From contig OZ253442.1 of assembly GCA_965261085.1 (NCBI GenBank), positions 1,696,001 through 1,760,000 on the forward strand: 64,000 nt of DNA, in the 5' to 3' direction. A program made the translations under genes and the position numbers. How positions within the stretch are numbered: position 1 is the first letter of the stretch; the number at the start of each line of letters is the position of its first letter. Source of the stretch: a bacterium. GTDB lineage: Bacteria; UBA8248. This document shows, one piece after another, positions 48,325-63,546 of the stretch. The notes below the pieces were generated by a model, which saw only the letters and a list, made by a program, of their open reading frames with translations, did no database searches and was not told where the DNA came from.

Positions 48325-48732
48325 TTGGTGGAACCTCTAACTGACTCCTTCCCGCCAAACCTTGTTCAGCTCCGTGACGCACTTTATGAAATAGACGTTG
48401 CGGACTTGGAGATATGCACGTGGCTTACGCGTCGCATGTTACGTGCGTGCGTTCCCGTTTATGTCGGCAAGTACGCCGGATCGATCAAACGGGTTGGGTG
48501 GAGCTTTCCCGACGACTCACAACCGTTTCCAGAATACGCTCCCCATTGGTTCCATGTAGCGGGAGAATACGACGATGGGAAAGAGGGTGCATGTGAGAAA
48601 GATCACGATGAAGATGGCAAATTGTGGCTTGCTTGGAGTCGTCCAATTGGCCCGTCCTGGATCGGCCCGTATCGGACTCCAAAGAAGCTCCTTCGGTCGA
48701 CTGTTACTCGATTTTGGAAGGCTTTGAAATGA
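48325..48732 (+). CDS. Prokaryotic E2/UBC-like protein
   Basis: FP...PFPEYAPHWFHV and WLAWSRP motifs typical of bacterial E2-fold proteins; ATGA overlap with the E1 gene. Confidence 0.65.
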   Translation: MVEPLTDSFPPNLVQLRDALYEIDVADLEICTWLTRRMLRACVPVYVGKYAGSIKRVGWSFPDDSQPFPEYAPHWFHVAGEYDDGKEGACEKDHDEDGKLWLAWSRPIGPSWIGPYRTPKKLLRSTVTRFWKALK

Positions 48733-50135
48733 CTACTTACTCAGTGGCTTGGCGTTCTGAAGTTGAAGCTATTGCCCGCCGTCACCTTCTGCAGCATCAC
48801 CATCTTGGCCGTCGCCAAGAGGATATTGCACTTGCTACATGGTATCCCGCGAGCGGTTCCAATCGCTATACTGCCATCATTGACGAAGTACTTTTGCCTA
48901 CAGAAGAAGAACGTATTCTCCAAGGCAACGTACAGATGACACGCGATTTTCTGCGTCGTTGCCGCCAGCGAGCGCTTTCGAAGGGTGCCGGTATGGCGGT
49001 AATGCACAATCATTTCGGTCCCGGTTGGCAGGAAATGAGTCCGGACGACGTTATTATGGAGCGTCGGAGTGTCTCCAATCCTGCCCGTGCGACCGGGCTA
49101 CCGGCTTTGGGCTTGACGCTCGGTACTGACGGAGCTTGGAGTGCTCGGTTCTGGATCCGAAAAAGATCGGATTTCGAGCGTCGGTGGTGCTCTTCAATCC
49201 GTATAATTTCTCCAAGCCGACTGTCGTTTCATGCCAATCCCCATGTTTTTCATTCTGACCTGAATGAATCGTCTTTGGAACGTTTTCGTCGATCTGTTGA
49301 GGCATGGGGTGTTGAGAGCCAAGCACTCCTAGGACAGTTGAAAGTTGGAATAGTCGGTCTCGGTAGCGTAGGCGCGCTAGCAGCCGAGGCGATGGGCCGA
49401 ATGGGTATACGACGGCTGGTCCTGATAGATATGGACTGTGTCGAGCCACATAATTTGGATCGCCTTGTTAATGCAGGTCGTTGGGATATTGGTCGATATA
49501 AAGTTCACGTGGCAGCAGAACATCTAGAACGTACGGCGTCTCATCCTTTTCATGAACTTATCGCTTTACCATTATCGCTTCGTGAGTCAAAAGCCTATCG
49601 ATCACTAGCTGATTGTGATGTTATCTTGGCCTGCGCAGATAAACCTATTGCACGTGATCTTGTAAACCATCTTGCTGTATGTCACTTGATCCCGGCAATT
49701 GAAGCTGGTGTTGCCCTTCGAAGCCGTGGTGGTCGCCTACATAAGGGTCATATCGTCTCTCAGGTGGTTACACCCGATAGCCGGTGTCTCAGATGCACAA
49801 AACAGTACACGACGGATCAACTCAGCCTGGAACTGGAAGGTCTACTAGAAGATCCGGAGTACATCCGCACCTTGCCGACTGACAAACGTCCCAATGCAGC
49901 CAACATTTTTCCAGCCAGTTTAGCGGCTGCATCGCAGCAAGTCGGTCTATTCACAAGAATGGTCCTTGGCCCGGAATGGTGGCCTCCGGTGTACCAACAG
50001 CGCCACCATTTAAGTGTTGCCTCACAACATATATCAATGGATGTTTGCAAGCCTTATTGCGACGTTCATGCACGCAACTGCCAAGGTAACCTCGGTGAGC
50101 CGAAGTGGCTTCTGCTATCAGGCGATTCTTCGTGA
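48729..50135 (+). CDS. JAB/MPN-peptidase-ThiF(E1) fusion protein
   Basis: N-terminal QEDIAL...MHNH...EMSPDD (E, HxH, SxxD); C-terminal GIVGLGSVG, DMDCVEPHNLDR, ACAD, CLRC, CKPYC. Confidence 0.88.
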   Translation: MTTYSVAWRSEVEAIARRHLLQHHHLGRRQEDIALATWYPASGSNRYTAIIDEVLLPTEEERILQGNVQMTRDFLRRCRQRALSKGAGMAVMHNHFGPGWQEMSPDDVIMERRSVSNPARATGLPALGLTLGTDGAWSARFWIRKRSDFERRWCSSIRIISPSRLSFHANPHVFHSDLNESSLERFRRSVEAWGVESQALLGQLKVGIVGLGSVGALAAEAMGRMGIRRLVLIDMDCVEPHNLDRLVNAGRWDIGRYKVHVAAEHLERTASHPFHELIALPLSLRESKAYRSLADCDVILACADKPIARDLVNHLAVCHLIPAIEAGVALRSRGGRLHKGHIVSQVVTPDSRCLRCTKQYTTDQLSLELEGLLEDPEYIRTLPTDKRPNAANIFPASLAAASQQVGLFTRMVLGPEWWPPVYQQRHHLSVASQHISMDVCKPYCDVHARNCQGNLGEPKWLLLSGDSS

Positions 50136-50138
50136 CTT

Positions 50139-51113
50139 ATGAGTGATTCCAAGGAATTAGAAGCGTTGCTACTGGAAGCGGACGGGATTGTCAATCGCGC
50201 CCATGAACTTCTTCATTCATGGCCTAACGCCAAAGCTGATCTAAAATCAGCCGAGGAGCTATCGTCATTACATCTAGCTCACTATACCTCTTTGGAAGCC
50301 ATTGTTTATATGCTTCAAACTTCAGATGGTGGCCTTCGACTCTCTCATACCTCAATAATGAACGATCCTGAGGAGGGGCGTGCCACTCTAGAAGGTCGTA
50401 TGATCTCGCATTTGCTGGAAAATGAATTCGGTGATGAGTCTTGGCTTTGGCAACGCTATGGTGCAGCTAATGTTTGCTGTTTTGTTGGTATCGTGCGTGA
50501 CGGTGAGCAAACTATCGACGCTGGTGACGACCTTCTCTTCTGGCGTCTTTATGGTAATGACTGTCGAGGCATTTCCATTACCCTCCCTCCTCACGTATCG
50601 AGGCGACTTGTTGATTCTTCTACTGTCGATTGCGTTATATATACCGACGATCCATCACTCGAAATTGATCTGTCGTTATTTTCATCTCTACTAAGGGACC
50701 TTGATTCTCTCCGCTGTCGTGCCCGCAATGCAGGACTTTGGTCTAAGATTTGTCCAGATGTTCTTGCCGCTTGTGATCCGCTCTTAAAGCAACGTTTTCT
50801 GCGCAAACGTTCCCATTATGCAATAGAACGCGAATATCGTGTCGTCGCGTTTCAATCAGAAGATGACGCTGAGGATGTTCTCTACTCCGGTGGTGGTCGG
50901 CATGTGCAACACGGGCTAATTCGAAATTACATACAAATTCCTGAACTGAGTTGTGAAGATATCCTCACTACAAATAGCCAAATTACGATTGGTTCCAATG
51001 TCCTCGAATCTTCAACTACGAAAGACATACTTTACAATTTGCTCGAATCTCGTGGGATAGTCCGTGGTGTAGTTTCCGTTCGTATTTCGGAAATTCCTTA
51101 TCGACCGCGCTGA
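50139..51113 (+). CDS. DUF2971-like protein
   Basis: HYTSLEA, MNDPEEG, FWRLYG...G, K..HY..EREYRV; starts 3 bp after the E1 stop. Confidence 0.7.
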   Translation: MSDSKELEALLLEADGIVNRAHELLHSWPNAKADLKSAEELSSLHLAHYTSLEAIVYMLQTSDGGLRLSHTSIMNDPEEGRATLEGRMISHLLENEFGDESWLWQRYGAANVCCFVGIVRDGEQTIDAGDDLLFWRLYGNDCRGISITLPPHVSRRLVDSSTVDCVIYTDDPSLEIDLSLFSSLLRDLDSLRCRARNAGLWSKICPDVLAACDPLLKQRFLRKRSHYAIEREYRVVAFQSEDDAEDVLYSGGGRHVQHGLIRNYIQIPELSCEDILTTNSQITIGSNVLESSTTKDILYNLLESRGIVRGVVSVRISEIPYRPR

Positions 51114-51121
51114 AATCCAGC

Positions 51122-51271
51122 CACGACGTGCCCGAGGCGGTGATTCGCAAGAGGTTCGACGCCGGGTGGCGCAACTTCGAGCAAGTCTACCAGGACTTGG
51201 TCGATGGGTGGATTTTGTACGATAATTCGGGCGATGAGCCGAAATTGCTGGTAGAGGAGTCGAGTGAATGA
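51122..51271 (+). pseudogene. C-terminal remnant of a zeta-toxin-like / predicted ABC-type ATPase
   Basis: Reads HDVPEAVIRKRFDAGWRNFEQVYQDLVDGWILYDNSGDEPKLL with no start or P-loop; not in the ORF track. Confidence 0.7.
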
Positions 51272-51495
51272 ATTCACGGAAACAAAACCTGACGCTAAAG
51301 CCTCGCGACCCGGACTTCGTAGGTTCTGATGTCGCGATGCTGAGGGCCGCCAAACGTGCGCGGCAACGAGCGAAAGAAACAGCCGAAATCGCCGCGGCGA
51401 CCAAAGGAAGCGGCGAGAGCGGACGAGGCGTCCGAGGGTTTAGAGCGCAAACCGGGCGAGATACAGGGGATGAACACCAACCGCGACCCACGTGA
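51268..51495 (+). CDS. Small hypothetical partner of the zeta-toxin-like ATPase
   Basis: ATGA overlap with the remnant; DPDFVGSDVAMLRAAKRAR helix resembles the usual downstream partner. Confidence 0.5.
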   Translation: MNSRKQNLTLKPRDPDFVGSDVAMLRAAKRARQRAKETAEIAAATKGSGESGRGVRGFRAQTGRDTGDEHQPRPT

Positions 51496-51556
51496 GCGAG
51501 GCTCCCGCAAGGCGGAGTGAGAATCCATCACGACCGAGGAAGGTCATTGTGTCTTA

Positions 51557-51768
51557 GTAGGGGCGGACCTATGTGTCCGCCCTGGTATTGATAACGGGCG
51601 TATGCGTCAGACCCTGCTTCTCAATCGCCGTCATTCTTGCGAATGCCGGAATCCAGAACTGATGCGTTTCTCGTCTGCCTAGATTCCGGCATGCGCCGGA
51701 ATGACGAGGTGGTGAATTTCGATGGTGTGGGTGTGATGCTTTGTAGGGACAGGTCGAGACCTGTCCCC
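51557..51768. repeat. Cluster of REP-like palindromes including a CGTCATTC...GAATGACG element (51629-51706)
   Basis: GTAGGGGCGGACCTATGTGTCCGCCC, GTAGGGACAGGTCGAGACCTGTCCCC and a near-copy of 1303-1380. Confidence 0.75.
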
Positions 51769-51981
51769 ACCCCTTCTTGAGGCCCGCCCCTACGGGAAAA
51801 TCTAACCAAGAGTGGCTACGTGGGATTCGATTGCTCCACCTGCTCCGCCCCTATGAAAGCCTTTCATTGCGACTCACCCCCCCTTGCCCCTACAATGTCA
51901 AACCCGACTGAGAAAGGAGGGTCTGCGCGTTCATATCGCGGCGGTTTTATTTTTCTAGGCACAGGGCGGGTTCGACAAATC

Positions 51982-52971
51982 ATGGCCAATATATCGATAC
52001 TGAAAGAGGGCGAGCGGTTCGATTCTTTTTTCAAGATCAAGGAATACGAGGCGCGCCAGAGCCGTGCGGGCAGGGAGTATCTCGATCTGACCCTGGAGGA
52101 CGCGACGGGCGAGGTTCCCGCCAAGGTCTGGGAGCCTGCGACCCAGGTGCAGGGGGCGATTCAGGCGGGCGATTTCATCAAGGTGCGGGCCGCAGCCGAG
52201 AACTACCAGGGCCGCTTGCAACTCAGGGTGGAGCGTGTCCGCCGGGTGAACGAGCAGGATTACGAGAGCGGCTTCAAGCACGAGGACTACGTGCAGCGCA
52301 CGCCTTACGATATCGACGTGATGTGGGAAGAGGCGAAACGCATCGCAGGCGGCTGCCACCCGCTCGTGGCCGCGTATCTCACGGCGATACTGAATGGGTA
52401 TGAAGAGAAATTCCGCGAATGGCCCGCCGCCCAGCGCATTCACCATCCTTATCTCGGCGGACTGCTCGAGCACACCTTATCAGTCACGAAAACGTGCCTA
52501 TATCTCGCGGATAAATACGACGTCTCAAAAGACCTCCTCGTCGCGGGCGCGCTCTTGCACGACATCGGAAAACTCGAGGAACTCTCCACCGAGGGCGCGA
52601 CGCACTACACCGCCGCCGGCCGCCTCCTCGGCCACATCGTGCTGGGGCGCGACATCGCCCGCGAATGGGCGCGGCGCGAGGGTGTTTTCCCAGAAGGAGA
52701 GTCGTTGCCCGAGGATTTTCTGCTGCATTTAGAGCACCTCATCCTCTCGCATCAGGGACAGCCCGACTGGGGCACCGTGAAAGTTCCCATGTCGGCGGAG
52801 GCGCTCCTGCTCCACTACGCGGACGACATCGACGCCAAGTTCAACCTGCTGAAGCGCGCGGTGGAGCAAGACGCCGGGGATGAGGATTTCACGGCCAGAA
52901 ACCACATCATGGCGCGCGCCTTCTACAAGGGTGGCCCGCCGCTCCCGCCGGAGAATCCGGCCGATGTATGA
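51982..52971 (+). CDS. yhaM: 3'-5' exoribonuclease YhaM-like (OB fold plus HD domain)
   Basis: YLDLTLEDATG, PAA..IHH...GGLLEH, LLHDIGK, ILSHQG, LHYADDIDAK. Confidence 0.85.
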   Translation: MANISILKEGERFDSFFKIKEYEARQSRAGREYLDLTLEDATGEVPAKVWEPATQVQGAIQAGDFIKVRAAAENYQGRLQLRVERVRRVNEQDYESGFKHEDYVQRTPYDIDVMWEEAKRIAGGCHPLVAAYLTAILNGYEEKFREWPAAQRIHHPYLGGLLEHTLSVTKTCLYLADKYDVSKDLLVAGALLHDIGKLEELSTEGATHYTAAGRLLGHIVLGRDIAREWARREGVFPEGESLPEDFLLHLEHLILSHQGQPDWGTVKVPMSAEALLLHYADDIDAKFNLLKRAVEQDAGDEDFTARNHIMARAFYKGGPPLPPENPADV

Positions 52972-53963: not shown

Positions 53964-54998
53964 ATGAAAATGCCTGATACCATGCAAGCGGCGGTTTATT
54001 ACCGAAACGACGACGTGCGGGTCGAGGAGATGGCCACGCCCCGCGCCGGAGCGGGCGAGCTTCTTATCGAGACGCGCGCGAGCGGCATCTGCGGCAGTGA
54101 CGTCATGGAGTGGTACCGGGTCAAAAACGCGCCGCGCGTTCTGGGCCACGAGGTGACGGGCGTCGTCGCGGAAGCGGGCGAGGGGGTGGAGCGTTTTAGT
54201 GTGGGTGATCGCGTCTGCGTGACCCATCACGTGCCGTGCAACCGCTGCGCGCATTGTCTGCGCGGAGACCACACGGCCTGCGCGACGCTCAAGAGCACGA
54301 ATTTCGACCCGGGCGGTTTCGCCGAATTCATCCGGGCGCCCGCCATCAACGTGGAGCGGGGGACGTTCCATCTGCCCGATGAGGTGTCCGATGACGCGGG
54401 CGTGTTCGTCGAACCCTTGGGCTGCGTCCTGCGCGGTTGGAAGCGTTTTCGGTTGACGCCGGGCCTGAGCGTCCTCGTGGTGGGAAGCGGCATGTCGGGT
54501 CTGCTGCACGTTCAGGCGGCGCGCCTCCTGGGAGCGGGCCCCGTTTTCGCGACGGACGTTCATCCTTATCGCTTAGACGCCGCCGAGCGGTTTGGCGCGC
54601 GCGCGCTGCCCCCGTGTGCGGATATGGCCGAGGCCCTACGGGAGGCGAACGGCGGCCGGCTGTCGGACCGCGTCGTCTTGTGCGCGGGCGCGCCCGAGGC
54701 GCTTGAGACGGCACTCGCGTGCGTGGCGTCTTGCGGCGTCTTGCAGCTTTTCGCCCCCACGCCGCCGGGTTACCGTCCCGAGATGGATTTGAACCGAATC
54801 TGGAGTGAGCAAATCGCCATCACCACCACCTACGGCGCGGCCCCGCTCGACCTGGAAGAAGCGCTCGCGCTCATTCGCGCCGGACGCCTGGACGTCGAGG
54901 AGATGATTACCCACAGGCTCCCGCTCGCGCAGGCGCAGGAGGGCTTCCGCCTCGTCGCCCAAGCTGGTGAATCGCTGAAGGTGGTGCTCAGGCCGTAG
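53964..54998 (+). CDS. Zn-dependent medium-chain alcohol/polyol dehydrogenase
   Basis: GICGSD, GHE, CNRCAHC...C, EPL, GSGMSG. Confidence 0.92.
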   Translation: MKMPDTMQAAVYYRNDDVRVEEMATPRAGAGELLIETRASGICGSDVMEWYRVKNAPRVLGHEVTGVVAEAGEGVERFSVGDRVCVTHHVPCNRCAHCLRGDHTACATLKSTNFDPGGFAEFIRAPAINVERGTFHLPDEVSDDAGVFVEPLGCVLRGWKRFRLTPGLSVLVVGSGMSGLLHVQAARLLGAGPVFATDVHPYRLDAAERFGARALPPCADMAEALREANGGRLSDRVVLCAGAPEALETALACVASCGVLQLFAPTPPGYRPEMDLNRIWSEQIAITTTYGAAPLDLEEALALIRAGRLDVEEMITHRLPLAQAQEGFRLVAQAGESLKVVLRP

Positions 54999-55017
54999 AG
55001 GCGCGTAAAGTCGAATC

Positions 55018-55046
55018 TTGCAGGAGGGGGCGAAAGAGGGTAGTGT
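55018..55046 (+). promoter_or_regulatory. Putative sigma70 promoter of module 1
   Basis: TTGCAG-N17-TAGTGT, conserved upstream of all three small genes. Confidence 0.6.
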
Positions 55047-55128
55047 TTTATACGAGATTGCGAGCCATGGGACGCGAGGCCATGGAGTTTCGTAGTGTGA
55101 AAATAAAGGACCCGTAAGGGGAAACGGG

Positions 55129-55344
55129 ATGACGGGTTTTGAAACGGCGACACTCGGGTTCTACACCATGCAGTCCATGATCGGGCTCGCGCAGTGCGGG
55201 CTCATCTGGATGGGCCTTAGGCAAATGGGCCGCTCTTCGGAATTGCGTGAAAGAGAAGGAGCGAGACGGCATGATGAGGTCATGAAAAATCACTCTGAAT
55301 CCATGACCGCGCTTAAGACGCTCATCGAGCGGACAGCGAAGTAA
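55129..55344 (+). CDS. Small membrane-anchored peptide, copy 1 (71 aa, one heptad)
   Basis: Three paralogues with mostly synonymous differences and in-frame indels; SD upstream; N-terminal hydrophobic helix. Confidence 0.8.
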   Translation: MTGFETATLGFYTMQSMIGLAQCGLIWMGLRQMGRSSELREREGARRHDEVMKNHSESMTALKTLIERTAK

Positions 55345-55366
55345 CACCCGCTTCCTACCACATTTC

Positions 55367-55398
55367 CCGCCTCCGTCCTCCAGGACGGGGGCTTTTTT
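55367..55398 (+). terminator. Rho-independent terminator of module 1
   Basis: GCCTCCGTCC-TCCA-GGACGGGGGC-TTTTTT. Confidence 0.8.
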
Positions 55399-55465
55399 CG
55401 TCGATCCTTTGCCACTCGTCCACGGGGTGGTAGGTCAGTTCGTTTTCGGGCGGGAGGCCCGAATC

Positions 55466-55494
55466 TTGCGGGAGGGGGCGAAAGAGGGTAGTAT
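55466..55494 (+). promoter_or_regulatory. Putative sigma70 promoter of module 2
   Basis: TTGCGG-N17-TAGTAT. Confidence 0.6.
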
Positions 55495-55584
55495 TTTGCC
55501 TGAGATTTCGAGCAACGCAGGGTGAGATGCCCTGGGTTCACGAGGTTTTCAATGTAACGACGGGGGACCCGTAAGGAGGAAGGA

Positions 55585-55821
55585 ATGACGGGTTTTGAAA
55601 CGGCGACACTCGGGTTCTACACCATGCAATCCATGATCGGGCTTGCGCAGTGCGGCCTCATCTGGATGGGCCTTAGGCAGATGAGCCGCTCCTCGGAATT
55701 GCGCGAAAGAGAAGGAGCCAGGCGGCATGAGGAGGTCATGAAAAATCATACCGAGACCATGAAAAATCACGAGGAGTCCATGACCTCCCTCAAGACGCTT
55801 ATCGAGCGGACAGCGAAGTAA
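55585..55821 (+). CDS. Small membrane-anchored peptide, copy 2 (78 aa, two heptads)
   Basis: Paralogue of copy 1; AAGGAGG SD. Confidence 0.8.
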   Translation: MTGFETATLGFYTMQSMIGLAQCGLIWMGLRQMSRSSELREREGARRHEEVMKNHTETMKNHEESMTSLKTLIERTAK

Positions 55822-55843
55822 CTCTCGCTTTCCGGCAGCCATA

Positions 55844-55876
55844 CCGCCTCCGTCCTTCGGGACGGGGGCTTTTTTC
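55844..55876 (+). terminator. Rho-independent terminator of module 2
   Basis: GCCTCCGTCC-TTCG-GGACGGGGGC-TTTTTT. Confidence 0.8.
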
Positions 55877-55942
55877 GTCGATCCTTTGCTACTCGTCCAC
55901 GGGATGGCGAGTCGGTTCGTTGTCAAACGCCATGCCCGAATC

Positions 55943-55971
55943 TTGCAGGAGGGGGCGAAAGAGGGTAGTGT
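55943..55971 (+). promoter_or_regulatory. Putative sigma70 promoter of module 3
   Basis: TTGCAG-N17-TAGTGT. Confidence 0.6.
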
Positions 55972-56053
55972 TTTATTCGAGATTGCGAGCCATGGGACGC
56001 GAGGCCATGGAGTTTCGTAGTGTGAAAATAAAGGACCCGCAAGGGGAAACGGG

Positions 56054-56332
56054 ATGACGGGTTTTGAAACGGCGACACTCGGGTTCTACACCATGCAGTC
56101 CATGATCGGGCTCGCGCAGTGCCTGCTCATCTGGATGGGCTTGAAGCAAATGGGCCGCTCCTCGGAATTGCGCGAAAGAGAAGGAGCCAGACGGCATGAT
56201 GAGGTCATTAAAAATCACGCCGAGACCATGAACAATCACGCGGAGTCCATGAACAATCACGCGGAGACCATGAAAAATCATGAGGAGTCCATGACCGCTC
56301 TCAAGACTTTAATCGAGCGGACGGCGAAGTAA
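56054..56332 (+). CDS. Small membrane-anchored peptide, copy 3 (92 aa, four heptads)
   Basis: Paralogue with IKNHAET-MNNHAES-MNNHAET-MKNHEES. Confidence 0.8.
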   Translation: MTGFETATLGFYTMQSMIGLAQCLLIWMGLKQMGRSSELREREGARRHDEVIKNHAETMNNHAESMNNHAETMKNHEESMTALKTLIERTAK

Positions 56333-56354
56333 CTCTCGCTTTCCGGCAGCCATA

Positions 56355-56388
56355 CCGCCTCCGTCCTTCGGGACGGGGGTTTTCTTTT
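56355..56388 (+). terminator. Rho-independent terminator of module 3
   Basis: GCCTCCGTCC-TTCG-GGACGGGGGT-TTTCTTTT. Confidence 0.8.
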
Positions 56389-56404
56389 GCTCTACAGATT
56401 GGTG

Positions 56405-58909
56405 TTACTCATCCACGGGGTGGTAGGTCAGTTCGTTTTCGGGCGGGGGGTCCTCGTCGCCCTCGGTTGCTTCATTCTCGTAAAGGGAATCGGGCGGGGC
56501 TTCTTCGGTGAATTGCGCCTCGTCCGCCTCGGTGTCCTGTATCTCCTCGGCCTCAGGCGAGGGAGGGGAAGCCTCCTTGAGGAGCGGGGCGAGTTTCGCC
56601 TCGCGGCGGATTCTTTCGGGCAGGCCGCTCCACCTTCTTCTCACGCGCGCGTTTCCTATCGCCATGGCGAGCGCTTTTTTCGCCCCGACGAGCACCACCA
56701 GCCGCCTCGCCCGCGTGAGGGCGGTGTAGACGAGGTTTCTCTGCAGCATCGGGTAGTGCTGGGTGTGGAGCGGGATGACGACGGCGGGGTATTCGCTTCC
56801 CTGGCTCTTGTGCACGGTGATGGCGTAGGCGTGCATCACCTCATCGAGCGCGCCGCGCGTGTATTCGACGACGTTCGAATCGAAGGCCACGCGAATGCTT
56901 CCCTCCTCGGGCGCTACGCTTTTGACGACGCCGATGTCGCCGTTGAACACGTCTTTTTCGTAGTTGTTCCTCACCTGGATGAGCTTGTCGCCCGTGCGGA
57001 ATGTGCGGCCCCCGCTCTGGAGCGCCGGGGCGTTTCCTGCGGGGTTGAGCGCTTCCTGTAAGCGCGCGTTCAAGCTCTGCACGCCGAGCACGCCGCGCTG
57101 CATGGGGGAGATGACCTGAAGATCGGCGATGGCGTCGATCCCGAACCGCTCGGGAATGCGCTCGCGGCACAGTTCGATGATGAGGTCCGCGCAGCGCTCC
57201 GCCTCGCTCTCCTCGATGAAATAGTAATCGAACGGTGCGTCTTCTTTTTCCCCTTTGCCGTTTCTGGGCATCTCGCCGCGGTTCACGCGGTGGGCGTTTT
57301 CGACGATCAGACTCTCCTGCGCCTGGCGGAAGACTTCGGTGAGCCGCACCACGGGGAGGGTTTCGGAGGTGATGGCGTCGCTCAGGACGTTGCCGGGCCC
57401 CACGGAGGGGAGTTGATCCACGTCGCCCACCAGGACGAGCGTCGCCGCGTCCGGCACCGCGCGCAGCAGATGGGCCGTCAGGTGCACGTCGAGCATCGAG
57501 GCCTCATCGATGATCACGATGTCCCCTGCGAGCGGGTTTTCCGCGTCGCGGGTAAAGCCGCCCGAGTGCCAGCTATACGCCAGCAATCTGTGGATGGTGG
57601 CCGCCTCGTGGCCGGTGACTTCCGAGAGGCGCTTGGCCGCCCGGCCCGTGGGCGCGCCCAGGATGACCTGGAGGCCGAGTTTCGTATAGAGGTTGGTGAC
57701 GGCGCTTACGATGGTCGTCTTGCCGGTGCCGGGGCCTCCCGTGACGATGAGCACTTTTTGCGTGAGCGCGCCCTCTATCGCCGCGCCCTGATTGCCGGTC
57801 GCCTTTCCGCCTTCGAGCGCGCGCCGGGCGAGGTGTCCGAGGCGCTCTTTGGTCGTGTTTCCGGGCGCTCCCTGCCCCCGCATGGCGGCTTCGAGGCGCG
57901 CCTCGTCACGCGGCGTGCAAATGAGCGCGGCGAGGCGGCGGGCGACCTCGCATTCCGCGGCGTACAGCGGTCGCGCGTAGACGCGCTTGCCCTCGGCCGA
58001 GGCCAGGTTCTCGGTCATGTTCGCCGATTCGATCACCAGGGCGCCGCCCTGGCCCAGGCTCTCGAGGACGGGGGTCAAGGCGTCGGCTTCCGTCTCGAGC
58101 ATTTCAGCGGCTGTCTCGACCAGATCCCCATAGGGCGAAAAGCAGTGGCCCTCGCGCTCGGCGAGTTGGTTCAGGACATAGACGGCTCCCGCCGCCAGGC
58201 GTTCGGGCGAGTCCGCGGGGATGCCCAGATTCTGGGCGATGCGGTCCGCGCTCTTGAAGCCCACGCCGTGAATCTCCGCCGCCAGGCGGTAGGGGTCTTC
58301 GCGGAGAATCCGTATGGAGGCTTCACCGTAGGTTCGGAGAATTTTCTCGGACAGATGAAGCGAGATGTCGTATTGACGCAGGAAGAGCATGATCTCCTTG
58401 ACCTCGCTCTGGCTCTTCCAGCTCTCGACGATCGCCTCGAGTTTCTTCGCGCCCAGTCCGTTGATTTCCGTGAGGCGCTCGGGTTGGTTGTCCAGAATGT
58501 CGAGGGATTTCTCGCCGAAGCGCGCCACGATTCTCCTGGCCAGCGCCGGGCCGATGTTCTTCACGATGCCCGAAGCCAGGTATTTTTCGATTCCCTCGAT
58601 CGTCGTGGGCTCCAGAGGGCGGGCGAGTTCGGCGTGGAACTGGCGGCCGAACCTGGGGTGATCCTTCCAGGCGCCCTCGAACCGGACGCGCTCGCCCTCG
58701 CGTATGGAAGAGAGATAACCCACCACGGCCACGCGCGGAAAATCCTCGTTGTCCGGCTGGACGAGCAAGACGGTGTAGCCGGTGTCCTCCGCGCGGAAGC
58801 GAATCCGCTCCACCGCGCCGGTCAGCTCGGTAGCGTCTTCGGGGAAAAGGCCCGCCTGGGGAGGAGGGGTCCCTCTTCTGGGGCGATGCGTTCTGGGTTT
58901 TCGCGTCAT
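56405..58909 (-). CDS. recD2: RecD2 ATP-dependent helicase
   Basis: HhH repeats (GIVKNIGP, GVGFKSAD), GGPGTGKT, APTGRAA, DEASM, GDVDQL, TVHKSQGSE, YTALTRA; acidic tail. Confidence 0.95.
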   Translation of the reverse strand: MTRKPRTHRPRRGTPPPQAGLFPEDATELTGAVERIRFRAEDTGYTVLLVQPDNEDFPRVAVVGYLSSIREGERVRFEGAWKDHPRFGRQFHAELARPLEPTTIEGIEKYLASGIVKNIGPALARRIVARFGEKSLDILDNQPERLTEINGLGAKKLEAIVESWKSQSEVKEIMLFLRQYDISLHLSEKILRTYGEASIRILREDPYRLAAEIHGVGFKSADRIAQNLGIPADSPERLAAGAVYVLNQLAEREGHCFSPYGDLVETAAEMLETEADALTPVLESLGQGGALVIESANMTENLASAEGKRVYARPLYAAECEVARRLAALICTPRDEARLEAAMRGQGAPGNTTKERLGHLARRALEGGKATGNQGAAIEGALTQKVLIVTGGPGTGKTTIVSAVTNLYTKLGLQVILGAPTGRAAKRLSEVTGHEAATIHRLLAYSWHSGGFTRDAENPLAGDIVIIDEASMLDVHLTAHLLRAVPDAATLVLVGDVDQLPSVGPGNVLSDAITSETLPVVRLTEVFRQAQESLIVENAHRVNRGEMPRNGKGEKEDAPFDYYFIEESEAERCADLIIELCRERIPERFGIDAIADLQVISPMQRGVLGVQSLNARLQEALNPAGNAPALQSGGRTFRTGDKLIQVRNNYEKDVFNGDIGVVKSVAPEEGSIRVAFDSNVVEYTRGALDEVMHAYAITVHKSQGSEYPAVVIPLHTQHYPMLQRNLVYTALTRARRLVVLVGAKKALAMAIGNARVRRRWSGLPERIRREAKLAPLLKEASPPSPEAEEIQDTEADEAQFTEEAPPDSLYENEATEGDEDPPPENELTYHPVDE

Positions 58910-58988
58910 GAATCGATCCTGGTCGCAGCCGGGCGGGCGGGGCGATGTGTCACCGGGTGCGCATGGCCGGGGTCGTGCGAGAGTCAGG

Positions 58989-59792
58989 TTAGCCCTCGCT
59001 CCTCCCGGCTTTTTTCGCTTCACTCCAAAGCGCTTCCAATTCTTCGAGAGACACGTCCTCGGGCGAGAGTCCCCGGGCGCGCAACGCTTGTTCCATATAA
59101 TGAAAACGCGCGGTGAAACGGCCGATGCAGGCGCGGGCCGCCCCCTCGGCGTTCACCCCGATCTTTCGGGAAAGGTTCACGGCGGCGAAGAGAAAATCAC
59201 CCATCTCCTCCTCCAGCGCCTCGCGGTCTCCGCTACGCATCGCCTCTTTGAGTTCCGTCCATTCTTCTTCCACCTTGTCCGCCGCTCCGGCCGCATCCGG
59301 CCAGTCGAAGCCCACGCGCGAGGCCTTTCCCTGAAGCCTTTGGGCGCGCTGGAGGGCAGGCATGGCGGCGGGCACGCCGTCGAGAATGGATGCGGAGTTG
59401 TTCTCGTCCTCCGCGCGGGCCTTTCTCTTGTTGATCTCCCAGTTTCTGAGCACCTCGCCGCTGGTTTCGGCGAGAGCGTCCTCGAACACGTGGGGATGGC
59501 GGTCGATCATCTTTTGGGCGAGGGCGCGGGCGGTCTCCTGGGCGTCGAAGTGTCCGTTCTCCTCCGCGAGTCGGCAGTGGAATAGCACCTGAAGCAGGAG
59601 GTCGCCCAACTCTTCTTTGAGCATCGCGGGGTCGCCCGCCTCGATGGCCTCCATCACCTCGTAGGCCTCCTCGATGAGGTAGGGCTTGAGACTCTGGTGG
59701 TTCTGCTCCTTGTCCCAGGGGCAGCCGTCCGGCGCTCTGAGGCGGGCCATGACCTCCACCGCGCGCTCGAAACCGCTTTTATTCTCGCTCAA
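58989..59792 (-). CDS. mazG: Nucleoside triphosphate pyrophosphohydrolase MazG
   Basis: LRAPDGCPWD.EQ, EEAYE, EELGDLL, RHPHVF, GFDW. Confidence 0.95.
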   Translation of the reverse strand: MSENKSGFERAVEVMARLRAPDGCPWDKEQNHQSLKPYLIEEAYEVMEAIEAGDPAMLKEELGDLLLQVLFHCRLAEENGHFDAQETARALAQKMIDRHPHVFEDALAETSGEVLRNWEINKRKARAEDENNSASILDGVPAAMPALQRAQRLQGKASRVGFDWPDAAGAADKVEEEWTELKEAMRSGDREALEEEMGDFLFAAVNLSRKIGVNAEGAARACIGRFTARFHYMEQALRARGLSPEDVSLEELEALWSEAKKAGRSEG

Positions 59793-60033: not shown

Positions 60034-61203
60034 CTACCAGCGCACGGAACCGAACAGGCCGATGCCGTGCGAGGCGTCGCCTCCCACGCGTTCGCGGCGG
60101 TCTCCTTCGAGCCTCAGGCTCACGCGATCGCCGACCCGCAGGCGTCCGCCCAGGCGGTAGGTCTGGCTTCCCCTGTCTGAGAGCGCAAGGCCGGCGTAGG
60201 GCTTGATGAGTGCGCCGCCGGGCGCGTCCATCCCGTAGCCCACTTCGGCTTCATAACGTGCGCCTTCACTCTGTACGCTCGAGGCCAGACTCGCCGTGGA
60301 GGCTTGCGACCAGAGACGCTCCGCCCCGCTCGCGGCGTCACCCCACGAGGAACCCACCCGCACCGAGAGGCCTCGTTTCCGGGTGCCCCAGGTGAAGTGA
60401 GCCGAACCCGACACGCCCATCTCGCTGAACCTGCTCTCCTCGTGCAGCAGCAAACCGCGCGCGTTCACGTCTATCACCATGTCCAGCGAGGGGTCGAAGA
60501 AACGGAAGCCGCCGCCCAGCTCGATGCCTCCTCCTTCTTCCGCGTCGCCTTTGTCGTAGCGTACGCCCATCACCAGCGAGGGCGTGATCGATGCGCCGTG
60601 TCCGAGCTTGTACTCTCGCGAACCCTCGAGAAGCAGCCGAAAGCGGTTCGTGTTCGTATCCACCGGGAGCAGTTTGTCGCGCACCTCATCCGCCTCTATC
60701 TCGACCACCATGACGTCGCCCTTCACCGCGAGGTCGTAGCCAATCTGGCGCGCCAACGGCAAGAGGGAACTACGGAAACCGAACGCCCCCATCCGCATCG
60801 AGATGTCGGTTTCGATCTTCTCGATACCTTCTTCTTTCTGCGCATACTCACCGTTCCCGAAACCGAACATGCCCCAGATAGTGAGGCGCTCGCTCACCGT
60901 GTAGCGGATGTAGGGATAAGCGCCCGTGAGCCTGGCCTCCACGTCGTTGCGCCGCCCGTCGATCGAGAAGTATCCCTCGCCCAGGGTGTGTGAGAGCGCG
61001 ACGCCCACCATGGTGCGGCCCCATTCGAAATCGCTCCCAATAGTGCCCGTGGTCACGTCGCCGTCGAAGGTGGAACTGTTCTCATCCCCAAAGAAGCTCG
61101 TCCGCGAGCCCCGGCCCCAGGCCGTCCAACTCGCGCCCAGGCCGTTTTCTGCGTTCTGCGCCGAGGCGAGATGGAACGAACTCGCCAGAAGAAGGTCGCT
61201 CAT
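60034..61203 (-). CDS. Autotransporter-like beta-barrel portion (probably the 3' part of one frameshifted gene)
   Basis: LLLASSFHL, WTAWGRG, GVALSH..GEG, YPY, GVRYD.GDAE.G.G.E.GGG, PYAG, C-terminal VRW. Confidence 0.8.
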   Translation of the reverse strand: MSDLLLASSFHLASAQNAENGLGASWTAWGRGSRTSFFGDENSSTFDGDVTTGTIGSDFEWGRTMVGVALSHTLGEGYFSIDGRRNDVEARLTGAYPYIRYTVSERLTIWGMFGFGNGEYAQKEEGIEKIETDISMRMGAFGFRSSLLPLARQIGYDLAVKGDVMVVEIEADEVRDKLLPVDTNTNRFRLLLEGSREYKLGHGASITPSLVMGVRYDKGDAEEGGGIELGGGFRFFDPSLDMVIDVNARGLLLHEESRFSEMGVSGSAHFTWGTRKRGLSVRVGSSWGDAASGAERLWSQASTASLASSVQSEGARYEAEVGYGMDAPGGALIKPYAGLALSDRGSQTYRLGGRLRVGDRVSLRLEGDRRERVGGDASHGIGLFGSVRW

Positions 61204-63116
61204 GGATATCTCGCGGTATTCCGCCGCGGAACCATCTCCGTAAGGCCGCCTAAGCCCAGGGTGCGGCTAGCGAGGCGGGAAGCGGAAGCGAAATCCGGGT
61301 CGTCCTGAGCGAGCGGAAGCGGAGAATCATCATCAAAGAAGTTCACGTCCTGTCCGGCGAGGGTCACCTTCGACTCCCGCCTCATGGAAGGCGATTTGAG
61401 GCGATTCTCGATCATCTCCACCGCCTGGCTCGCCACCGTGCGCCCGAAGCGCGTAAGCCAGTCGTTCGTCCCCTGGGCTCTGTTATCATCGACCTTCGGA
61501 GTGGAGTTGTTTAACTTCAAATTGTTGATGGGTCCGGCGGGAATTTCGGTCAAGTCGACGATGCGAGGGCTGCCGGGTGTGTAGCTGAGCGTTACTTCCT
61601 CCCCCGGCGCCACCGCCGATTCCAGTGTCAGCGTCACCTTCTTGCCTTTGACCTCGACCTTGGAGACCGTCCGATTCGCGCCATCCACCATCACCGTGAA
61701 AGAGCCCGTCGTCGGAACGGAAGCCTCATCCAGTGGCTCGTCGTAAGTCAAAGTTATCTGATCGTCCTGCAAACTCGTGTCCACCAGCACCGGCGCTTTT
61801 CCGATGTTCTCGACCGGCATGTTCGTGAAAGACGGGGCGTCGACCCCGGTTATGTGTTTGATCGGTTTTTTCCCGGTTGAATAGGAGAGCGTCACTTCCT
61901 CGCCGGGCATCGCCGGAGTTTCCAGAATCATCGTCACGCGCGAGCCGCTCACGTTGACCGATTCGACGTCACCCGTGCTCACCGTGAAATCACCGGGGGC
62001 AGGCACGGAACCCCTGTCCAGAAGCTCGTTGTAGGTGAGCACCAGCTTGTTTCCGTCTACGGTCGCGCTAATCGGCGTCGGGGGATCGGGTTGAGCGGGA
62101 GATTTCGTAACCCCGCCGCCGCCGCCACCGCCGCCACCGCCGCCACCGCCACCGGGATTGTTGTTGCCCGGGTTGGTGTTGGTGCCGGGGTTGGTGTCGG
62201 GGTTGTTGGTGGTGTCGGGGGTGGTGTCGGGGGTGGTGTCGGGGGTGGTGTCGGGGTTGGTGTTGGTGTCGGGGTTGGTGTTGGTGTCGGGGTTGGTGTT
62301 GGTGTCGGGGTTGGTGTTGGTGTCGGGGTTGGTGTTGGTGTCGGGGTTGGTGTTGGTGTCGGGGTTGGTGTTGGTGTCGGGGTTGGTGTTGGTGTTGGTG
62401 TCGGGGTTGGTGTTGGTGTCGGGGTTGGTGTTGGTGTCGGGGTTGGTGTTGGTGTCGGGGTTGGTGTTGGTGTCGGGGTTGGTGTTGGTGTCGGGGTTGG
62501 TGTTGGTGTCGGGGTTGGTGTTGGTGTCGGGGTTGGTGTTGGTGTCGGGATTGTTGTTGGTGTCGGGATTGTTGATAGAGTCGCTTACCGTTATCACGCC
62601 CACATTGTGTATCGGGCAATCTTTATCGGTATTGTTCTCCCACACCTCGTGCATGAATGTTATCGGCGTATTAATATCAAAATTCATTTCCGCCCTAATC
62701 GTGACCGTTCGCCATTGAGTCGGCTGATTTAGGTCCGAGTTGTCCGGGTCGAACTCCCAGCCGACCGACGGCACCCAGGTGATCATTGCGTCTTCGCGGT
62801 CGACGTTTGGCGGGTAGATTCCGTCTGACACCACCATGTTATTGACGTGTATCCTGACCCACCAGCCGTCAGTTATCGGCTGCTTCGTCAGTCTCAAGCG
62901 GTAGGTGAGGGTCCCTCTAACTCCGCTGTTCAACGTGTTCGTCAACACCTCCACTTCCACGGTTCCAGTGCTCGGGTCTTGGTTCACCCAAGTCGTACGT
63001 GGGGGTGATTGCGCCAGGGAGTTCGCGCCGTAGAATCCGTAGGCGGCGAGCAGGAACGAGAGCGTGAATGCGACGACAGTGCGGAAGCGCCTGCCCCGAT
63101 TCGAGCGGACGCTCAT
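61200..63116 (-). CDS. Secreted passenger region with (PDTNTN)n repeat, poly-Gly linker and two SwmB-like domains
   Basis: Signal peptide at MSVRS; [19 protein letters not shown]...F.V repeated twice; [10 protein letters not shown] motif that normally precedes this barrel type. Confidence 0.75.
62112..62575 (-). repeat. Coding tandem repeat: about 18 copies of an 18-bp unit (PDTNTN), short 12-bp units (PDTT) and a Gly14 run
   Basis: GTTGGTGTTGGTGTCGGG repeated on the + strand. Confidence 0.95.
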
Positions 63117-63546
63117 GAGGCGAAGGCGGGGGACCGCTCCGCTCGTGATTCTCACCATCTGGTTTTTTGGCTTTCGCACTTTTTCAGTCCGTTTGCCCGG
63201 TTCACTCCCTCGTTGCGGTTTCACGGCGACAAGCCGATCCGCCGTGGGGAGTAGAACCACGATTGCCGGGCGGGCAGTTCGGTGCGTTGGTGCAACGGCC
63301 GGGTGCTCGGTGGTGCAGATATATACAGGACGGGCGAATGTACTACCTTGGGGGCAGTAAATGTCGCATAAATGCGCGTTGTATGCAACCCCTATAATGC
63401 GCGTTACTCCCCAAAACATCGTTGTGGGTAGATATCCCATTATATGGCGTAATCAGGTTCTCGAAGACACAAAATGTTGTGGTTTACGCTTGACATCTCT
63501 GTCGAAATGAGAGAAATTGCCTTGTGAGGAGCCACGAGGAATCCCC

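Follow-up and report, generated by a model that had tools for sequence, protein, structure and literature searches.

Why would a bacterium keep three tandem copies of one small gene between two housekeeping genes, each copy with control signals of its own and each encoding a protein of a different length? This question is raised by positions 55011-56450 of a 64,000-nucleotide (nt) stretch of bacterial DNA (GTDB lineage Bacteria; UBA8248; GenBank assembly GCA_965261085.1, contig OZ253442.1, positions 1,696,001 to 1,760,000 of the forward strand), which is referred to here as the window. An original prediction, made from the letters of the window, described at this place three tandem self-contained units of roughly 450-510 bp that encode a small membrane peptide of no recognised family. 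Three head-to-tail units of ~456-511 bp were found, each with one plus-strand open reading frame (ORF), of 71, 78 and 92 amino acids (aa). The proteins are most fittingly placed in a new family of small, anchored proteins with a coiled coil, carried here in a new kind of length-diversified array.

A tandem array of small coding genes

The tandem organisation is apparent from direct repeats. Repeat family D1 has three copies of 295 nt with start-to-start spacings of 456 and 469 nt, repeat family D2 is a 150-nt block whose three copies are spaced by 477 and 511 nt, and Tandem Repeats Finder (TRF) reported a period of 477 over the array (2.1 copies, 82% matches, score 1321). The ORFs read at 55129-55344, 55585-55821 and 56054-56332 are the same three that the original prediction had quoted, and its description of the layout and of the unit size was borne out.

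Related loci were collected by a pattern scan of species-representative genomes, which returned 16 loci, five of them labelled Nitrospinota or Nitrospinaceae. These loci hold 41 further copies in arrays of one to five, at a spacing of ~450-530 bp. With the three window copies they form a set of 44 copies from 17 genomes, and the reading frame is intact in all 44. Across 59 aligned core codons, the three window copies differ from one another by 9-11 synonymous and 2-7 non-synonymous changes per pair; the pairwise ratio of non-synonymous to synonymous divergence (dN/dS) is 0.05-0.18, and dS over the core is 0.26-0.33. For orthologues from different genomes the median dN/dS was 0.17 in type A (243 pairs) and 0.08 in type B (192 pairs), two subtypes that are described below. 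It had been claimed that the copies differ mostly at synonymous sites and are under purifying selection, and this claim held, with ratios that stay far from 1. In terms of sequence, the array reads as three independently transcribed, protein-coding mini-genes. It is barely credible that the units are decaying duplicates or mis-called ORFs, given the 44 intact frames, dN/dS values far below 1 and the conservation of the start region, Shine-Dalgarno (SD) sequence, promoter box and terminator.

On one side of the array lie a DeoC-type aldolase gene and a Zn-dependent alcohol dehydrogenase (ADH) gene on the plus strand, and on the other side a convergent RecD2 gene and then MazG on the minus strand. 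Both genes that flank the array are housekeeping genes. The individual features are as follows.

53964-54998, plus strand: Zn-dependent alcohol-dehydrogenase-like gene, 344 aa, 5' flank of the array (Pfam ADH_N, ADH_zinc_N)
55018-55046, plus strand: unit 1 promoter-like box, TTGCAG-N17-TAGTGT (sequence reading)
55053-55128, plus strand: unit 1 leader, type I, with a CCAUGG-N9-CCAUGG hairpin at 55065-55085 and the SD sequence AAGGGG (alignment; fold z-score -2.76)
55129-55344, plus strand: copy 1 ORF, 71 aa, with two core His residues (H48, H55)
55369-55398, plus strand: unit 1 intrinsic terminator, a 10-bp stem with 8 G-C pairs and a T run (scan site 55369-55392)
55414-55460: relic of the RecD2 gene 3' end, co-duplicated with unit 1 (repeat family D4, 94% identity to 56407-56453)
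55466-55494, plus strand: unit 2 promoter-like box, TTGCGG-N17-TAGTAT (sequence reading)
55501-55584, plus strand: unit 2 leader, type II, with a CAGGG-N7-CCCUG hairpin at 55518-55534 in place of the CCAUGG hairpin (fold z-score -1.09)
55585-55821, plus strand: copy 2 ORF, 78 aa, with 21-nt coding repeats at 55729-55783 (2.6 copies, TRF)
55846-55875, plus strand: unit 2 intrinsic terminator (scan site 55846-55869)
55891-55937: second relic of the RecD2 3' end (repeat family D4, 74% identity)
55943-55971, plus strand: unit 3 promoter-like box, TTGCAG-N17-TAGTGT (sequence reading)
55978-56053, plus strand: unit 3 leader, type I, with the hairpin at 55990-56010 (fold z-score -1.94)
56054-56332, plus strand: copy 3 ORF, 92 aa, with 21-nt coding repeats at 56206-56294 (4.2 copies) that give five heptads
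56357-56386, plus strand: unit 3 intrinsic terminator (scan site 56357-56380)
56405-59023, minus strand: RecD2-type helicase gene, 872 aa, convergent, 3' flank of the array (Pfam HHH_RecD2, AAA_30, SH3_13, OB_YrrC, UvrD_C_2)

The position of the array is conserved, and the array itself is rapidly remodelled. In all 16 related loci an ADH gene lies upstream and a RecD2 gene downstream, although in locus L020 RecD2 is seen only as a gene end at the edge of the locus, and the flanking proteins are 86-98% identical. Each unit closes with a 47-nt copy of the RecD2 3' end (repeat family D4). Because every unit carries this copy, growth of the array in place by unequal recombination is established at the level of sequence comparison. 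Searches for relatives in plasmids, phages and viral contigs gave no matches, and on these searches the family appears to be neither mobile nor phage-borne. A comparison with integron gene cassettes, in which ORFs lacking promoters are set apart by attC sites beside an intI integrase, was also rejected: the units here are duplicates homologous to one another, each has a promoter box and a classical terminator of its own, and no integrase accompanies the flanking ADH and RecD2 genes.

Contigs assembled from four short-read DNA runs break within the array. Contigs of runs X3 and X5 join position 55107 to 55565, skipping 457 nt, and X3 alone joins 55743 to 56234, skipping 490 nt. About one unit is skipped at these joints, with 90% likeness, and one joint has a side of only 23 nt. 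The joints give at most a weak hint of copy-number variants in related populations, and they could also be artefacts in the assembly of repeats.

Predicted helical architecture and graded length of the array proteins

The proteins start with the residues MTGFETA, which are followed by a 22-residue segment (LGFYTMQSMIGLAQC(G/L)LIWMGL) with two Gln and several Gly residues. Behind this anchor segment lie a basic juxtamembrane stretch, heptads of the form M-(K/N)-N-H-x-E-(S/T), and then MTALKTLIERTAK. The C-terminal tail (...ALKTLIERTAK) is conserved. With an alignment of 29 relatives, AlphaFold2 modelled the 92-aa copy as one unbroken helix from residue 4 to residue 91 (mean pLDDT 77.4, about 90 over the repeats). 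Read as heptads, the sequence of this copy places I52, M59, M66, M73, M80 and I87 at position a, and H48, H55, H62, H69, H76 and L83 at position d. From these positions it follows that the predicted coiled-coil core would consist of alternating Met and His layers, and the 71-, 78- and 92-aa copies have two, three and five core His positions, respectively. A homo-oligomer prediction with three copies of the chain (alignment A1) scored 0.31 against a mark of 0.42, a result that weighs neither way on binding.

Lys and Arg residues are more frequent on the C-terminal than on the N-terminal side of the hydrophobic segment in 142 of 146 family proteins (means 3.4 vs 0.46). Because this excess lies after the segment, the positive-inside rule predicts an N-out/C-in topology. 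Neither a signal peptide nor an n-region was found in the protein. The term "membrane peptide" in the original prediction stands only in part, since a hydrophobic helix is present but is weak in the window copies (best 19-mer Kyte-Doolittle value 1.03 vs a family median of 1.9), and the bulk of the protein is a charged helix.

The 44 copies span 64-100 aa. Every difference in length is an insertion of 7 or 11 residues, found at the DNA level as 21-nt tandem repeats, and every such step preserves the helical register. A maximum-likelihood tree of the conserved parts (192 columns) resolved two clades with 100/100 support, namely type A (23 rows) and type B (21 rows), the latter having an anchor that is longer by four residues. 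Both types are present in 10 of the 17 genomes. Copies of one genome often group within these clades, yet near-identical copies vary in length, as in locus L021, whose three type B copies have end branches no longer than 0.005 but lengths of 86, 68 and 93 aa. Among pairs of the same type, equal length was seen in 1 of 25 within arrays and in 78 of 438 from different genomes; a value as low came from 767 of 20000 label shuffles. A deficit of equal lengths within arrays is suggestive only, the genomes being related.

Plain dosage amplification would account for the array in another way. Unequal crossing-over would raise the copy number, and the lengths would be neutral by-products of slippage in the 21-nt repeats. 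The original prediction had named a dosage-amplified family as one option, and the copies have indeed been multiplied in tandem: their number varies from one to five among species with such similar flanking proteins, copies of one genome often cluster on the tree, and copies 2 and 3 of locus L010 encode identical 82-aa proteins that also agree over all 192 tree columns. The two contig joints that skip one unit point weakly in the same direction. What this option does not anticipate are the systematic length differences and the deep division into types A and B, which coexist in many arrays. Same-type copies within an array share their length less often than chance, and the steps of 7 or 11 residues keep the helical register each time. 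Dosage as the sole reason for the array is thus considered unlikely.

The reading that is favoured, albeit tentatively, is that the array encodes a self-associating, membrane-tethered stalk in graded lengths, with a His/Met core that makes assembly dependent on metal or pH. Each protein would form one long helix, inserted in the N-out/C-in orientation. Self-association of the chains would come about through the Gln-bearing anchor and through a coiled coil in the cytoplasm that has Met at heptad position a and His at d. The conserved tail would be held ~5-10 nm from the membrane, and the array would provide stalks of graded length. Because of the stacked His/Met layers, assembly or the binding of a partner would depend on a metal ion (of the Cu or Zn type) or on pH. 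The conserved box and the leader hairpin would place all copies under one shared regulator, and the proteins would serve as scaffolds, tethers or sensors at the inner membrane face and not as toxins.

A precedent for this chemistry is described for the channel KCa3.1, in which a His at a core position of a parallel four-helix bundle binds copper (PMC6023178). As predicted for the array proteins, a core-heptad His is repeated in each chain, and the cytoplasmic coiled coil of KCa3.1 is described as binding axial copper (PMC6023178). However, KCa3.1 is a eukaryotic channel with a single His layer and is not homologous, whereas the array proteins would have up to five His layers that alternate with Met. 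A second precedent is SilE, whose His/Met pairs on one helix face are reported to bind Ag+ (PMC10080550).

Several points weigh against the stalk. Copper sites made of His and Met are typically periplasmic, whereas the positive-inside rule predicts a cytoplasmic place for the domain in question. With so weak a hydrophobic segment in the window copies, the case for their membrane insertion relies on the more hydrophobic paralogues to which they are homologous. Unequal lengths are in modest excess only, as about 4% of shuffles were as low, and the excess comes from related, non-independent genomes and could arise neutrally by slippage of the 21-nt repeats. Lastly, the neighbours of 10 diverged paralogues in the window genome are unrelated housekeeping enzymes with no common theme.

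A bolder form of the same idea, which is speculative and rather improbable, treats the array as a set of "molecular rulers". The proteins would come in length quanta of 7 or 11 residues, stalk length would be tuned by slippage of the coding repeats, and the tail would be shown at graded distances under particular metal or pH conditions. The family would be habitat-specific, expanded in one symbiont-like Nitrospinota genus and exchanged with Alpha- and Gammaproteobacteria. The array is in any case a natural length series of one protein, and alternating Met and His layers are rare in natural coiled coils. If the idea of graded stalk lengths or of metal- or pH-dependent assembly were true, it would be a new bacterial way to organise the inner membrane face.

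The His/Met repeats can also be read as a membrane-tethered metal buffer, in which each M-x-x-H or H-x-x-x-M unit of a single helix would bind one soft ion (Cu+, or of the Ag+ type) and added repeats and copies would merely raise the capacity. The comparison is with SilE and PcoE. According to published descriptions, SilE belongs to the sil efflux system and is intrinsically disordered and periplasmic (PMC5008109, PMC10407283), and its short MX2H and HXXM motifs, with His/Met pairs on one helix face and one turn apart, are reported to bind Ag+ and to fold into helices (PMC10080550). In the array proteins, M-K-N-H is an MX2H motif, His and Met share one helix face, the repeated His/Met pairs are one helical turn apart as in SilE/PcoE (PMC10080550), and H-x-E-x-M is a hallmark of the whole family. 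Unlike SilE/PcoE, however, the array proteins are probably anchored, have no signal peptide and are predicted to be cytoplasmic, and their pairs follow HX3M spacing vs HXXM in SilE, within strict heptads. No cop, cus, sil or pco genes lie beside the array or beside the 10 paralogues whose neighbours were examined, and the strongly conserved anchor and LIERT tail would be needless in a mere buffer. Membership in the SilE/PcoE group was rejected on the HX3M spacing, the missing signal peptide, the predicted C-in topology and the lack of metal-resistance genes nearby, and the buffer retains only a minor share of the probability.

PspB-type proteins are small bitopic stress proteins of ~70 aa, with an N-terminal membrane helix and a cytoplasmic helical or zipper domain, that work by protein-protein contact. 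The array proteins are like them in size and in the predicted combination of a membrane helix with a cytoplasmic helical domain. Unlike PspB, they have no Pfam match at E<=10 and no psp-type operon, and they form a multi-copy array with variable repeats.

Promoter box, leader and terminator

The promoter-like box that had been claimed for each unit was found at the three sites in the window, and all 44 copies are preceded by a TTGCNG-N17-TAGTRT box, the length of the spacer being 17 nt in every case. A scan with the sigma-70 consensus did not call it, as each hexamer fits only three to four of six positions. A sigma-54 reading of the TTGC box was rejected by eye, the GG at -24 being present only in unit 2. 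In a genome-wide search, the box and leader motifs had no further occurrence in the window genome. From the end of the -10 box to the start codon there are 78-91 nt in the 44 copies, which gives a leader of ~70-85 nt, close to the ~80-90 nt that had been proposed. The proposed terminators are also present, with a 10-bp G+C stem and a T run after each window ORF. The terminator pattern was found in 41 of the 44 copies; a hairpin is visible by eye in L010_1 and L022_1, and L011_1 has none. Terminator-like sites in the array region number 10 vs 2.1 +/- 1.5 in shuffles.

The leaders are of two kinds. Type I leaders (n=34) have a CCAUGG-N9-CCRUGG hairpin and type II leaders (n=10, including that of window unit 2) have a CAGGG-N7-CCCUG hairpin. 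In the alignment of the 34 type I leaders the hairpin is retained and the changes are one-sided only. There were no compensatory double changes among 8 pairs in the 34 type I leaders, nor among 21 pairs in the 10 type II leaders. An Rfam search returned four matches, all far under the gathering scores (E >= 1.1). The leader is clearly constrained to judge from these alignments, and the hairpin is backed only by its conservation, by the one-sided changes and by its replacement in type II by a different hairpin. Whether the proteins are stalks or toxins, the shared box and leader point to a regulator not described before.

Two smaller features were seen in the leaders. An element GGA(C/T)CCG, identified by eye, is shared by 10 of the 17 family genes of the window genome and lies 15-50 nt 5' of their start codons. 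Its sites in the array are 55109-55115, 55565-55571 and 56034-56040, and it recurs in the paralogue leaders of L027, L029, L030, L032 and L034. The proteins encoded behind it are only ~30-40% identical, and their leaders are otherwise dissimilar. Among 12 paralogue leaders that were folded, no significant fold was found and none accompanies the element. The element might be recognised by an RNA-binding regulator common to these genes, or it might be a standby site for ribosomes. Moreover, the AUG of the type I leader hairpin opens an upstream ORF (uORF) of 16 codons in unit 1 (55067-55117) and 21 codons in unit 3 (55992-56057). The unit 3 uORF overlaps the main AUG, and many relatives read MEREAVEFAG instead. 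Because one-base indels break the frame in 4 of the 34 leaders, the uORF is probably not a conserved peptide.

The layout of the units had suggested a comparison with tandem type I toxin arrays. If the array were of this kind, a Gln/Ser/Gly-lined helix would oligomerise and permeabilise the membrane in the manner of a type I toxin or a holin, the structured leader and a putative RNA would hold translation off, and the units would multiply as addictive or selfish elements. Fozo et al. (2010) searched for type I toxins by the criterion of tandem repetition and describe these toxins as <70 aa, with a transmembrane region plus a C-terminus that is small and polar or aromatic (PMC2887945). In the ldr-rdl, ibs-sib and zorO-orzO loci, as described there, small tandem ORFs with a hydrophobic helix lie in one intergenic region, and each unit has its own promoter, a long 5' leader and a terminator (PMC2887945). 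The array shares these traits. Its tandem, self-contained units with long leaders fit the layout criterion (PMC2887945), the similarity of the duplicates extends beyond the ORF, and in units 1 and 3 the SD sequence and the AUG fall within the predicted hairpin. The stand-alone position of the paralogues between unrelated housekeeping genes is likewise in keeping with a toxin.

The proteins themselves fit poorly, and here the array departs from the type I loci. Only 8 of the 44 copies are shorter than 70 aa; the other 36 have 71-100 aa, with a C-terminal charged, helical stalk of 34-66 residues that is under purifying selection. They lack toxin-family homology, with no Pfam toxin or holin match at E<=10 and, in PHROGs and PADLOC, only one match at E=0.015, of unknown function. 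No phage or plasmid context was found. On the opposite strand, no conserved antisense promoter or terminator was detected, the minus-strand terminator-like hairpins being confined to window units 1 and 3 and not conserved beyond the window genome, and an antitoxin RNA was not detectable from sequence at the array. Because dS over the core is 0.26-0.33, no overlapping RNA seems to constrain synonymous sites. The size of the family, at 651 clusters, is a further difference. The likeness to type I arrays is one of layout and fails on proteins that are too long and hydrophilic and on the missing toxin-family match, and a toxin is judged a rather poor prospect. If it were true all the same, type I-like systems would extend to much longer proteins and to a new phylum.

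In the small holin-like phage proteins BhlA and XhlA, of about 70-90 aa, a hydrophobic helix at the N-terminus precedes a charged coiled coil. The array proteins share this general architecture, and their neighbours in the ESM Atlas are small phage proteins, including one cluster that is 64% Holin_BhlA; the score of 0.88 is below the mark of 0.9, and these neighbours are taken as leads only. Assignment to BhlA/XhlA (PF10960/PF10779) was rejected: Pfam gave no match at E<=10, the searches of phages, plasmids and viral contigs brought up no relatives, and the flanking genes are ADH and RecD2.

Distribution of the wider family

That no family had been recognised in the three proteins was confirmed against curated collections: Pfam gave no match for the window copies at E<=10, and NCBIfam, PHROGs, PADLOC and the PDB sequences gave nothing significant. 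For the longer paralogues, the libraries returned mostly sub-threshold coiled-coil noise; one DprA_WH match lay slightly above the cut-off, with no single stretch passing alone. Full-text keyword searches retrieved no paper on the family, although its absence from print is not thereby established.

A family could nevertheless be delimited by homology. Its members begin with MT(E/G/T)(F/Y)(E/Q), have one hydrophobic helix with a conserved Gln(-Cys), and continue with a variable run of 7- or 11-residue H-x-E-x-M units and a tail of the form AL..LIERT. The three window copies align over their full length with 26 relatives and show all of these features. Of 1.84 billion cluster representatives, 651 matched a profile of the 29 members at E<=1e-3 and 233 still did so at E<=1e-10. 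H-x-E-x-M was present in 138 of 145 newly returned representatives, in which 356 of 662 His residues stand in this context, and 104 of the 145 have an L(I/V/L)xR(T/P/N) tail. Small proteins are largely absent from annotation, and this family amounts to at least 651 clusters without a name, a domain or a structure.

The first homologue search returned 67 proteins, of which three were named, all as hypothetical proteins of Nitrospinae metagenome-assembled genomes (MAGs). A search from a distant member returned 71 proteins; the five with names are again hypothetical and from MAGs, and belong to Defluviicoccus sp. (2), Gammaproteobacteria bacterium (2) and Nitrospinae bacterium (1). Among 51 genomes of the phylum, the family was found in 22 of 22 other genomes of the window's genus, an uncultured Nitrospinota genus of marine bacteria in which it is greatly multiplied. 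Eight sister genera within the same taxonomic family, with 19 genomes between them, gave no match, and a genus from another taxonomic family gave matches in 1 of its 2 genomes. The matches to the family profile range from 1 to 32 per genome across the genus, with 18 in the window genome. These results point to a distribution that is patchy and crosses phyla.

The window genome has 17 family members, which are the three array copies and 14 diverged paralogues. The paralogues are stand-alone units among unrelated housekeeping genes, most of them with a recognisable TTGAC-type promoter. Further subfamilies occur as tandem pairs or triplets at a spacing of ~490-580 nt, as in L033 (G000:C1:3493674-3494619) and at G032:C1:624529-625763. 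Because such pairs and triplets exist in other subfamilies, arraying is a trait of the family and not of the window locus alone. In L032 (G000:C1:2085397-2085684 and 2089998-2090285), two 81-aa paralogues that are one residue apart lie 4.6 kb from each other. Their leaders agree throughout the last ~75 nt, and only 2 of 90 positions distinguish their downstream flanks, which suggests a recent segmental duplication.

Elsewhere in the window, the region 48624-52971 encodes a ThiF-family protein of 503 aa that is extended at length on its N-terminal side, a protein with an OB-fold and an HD domain, and a 324-aa ORF without a Pfam match. On the minus strand at 60034-63440, a protein with an autotransporter beta-domain (389 aa) adjoins a 746-aa protein with SWM_repeat domains. 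These two look like a surface-protein pair that is unrelated to the array.

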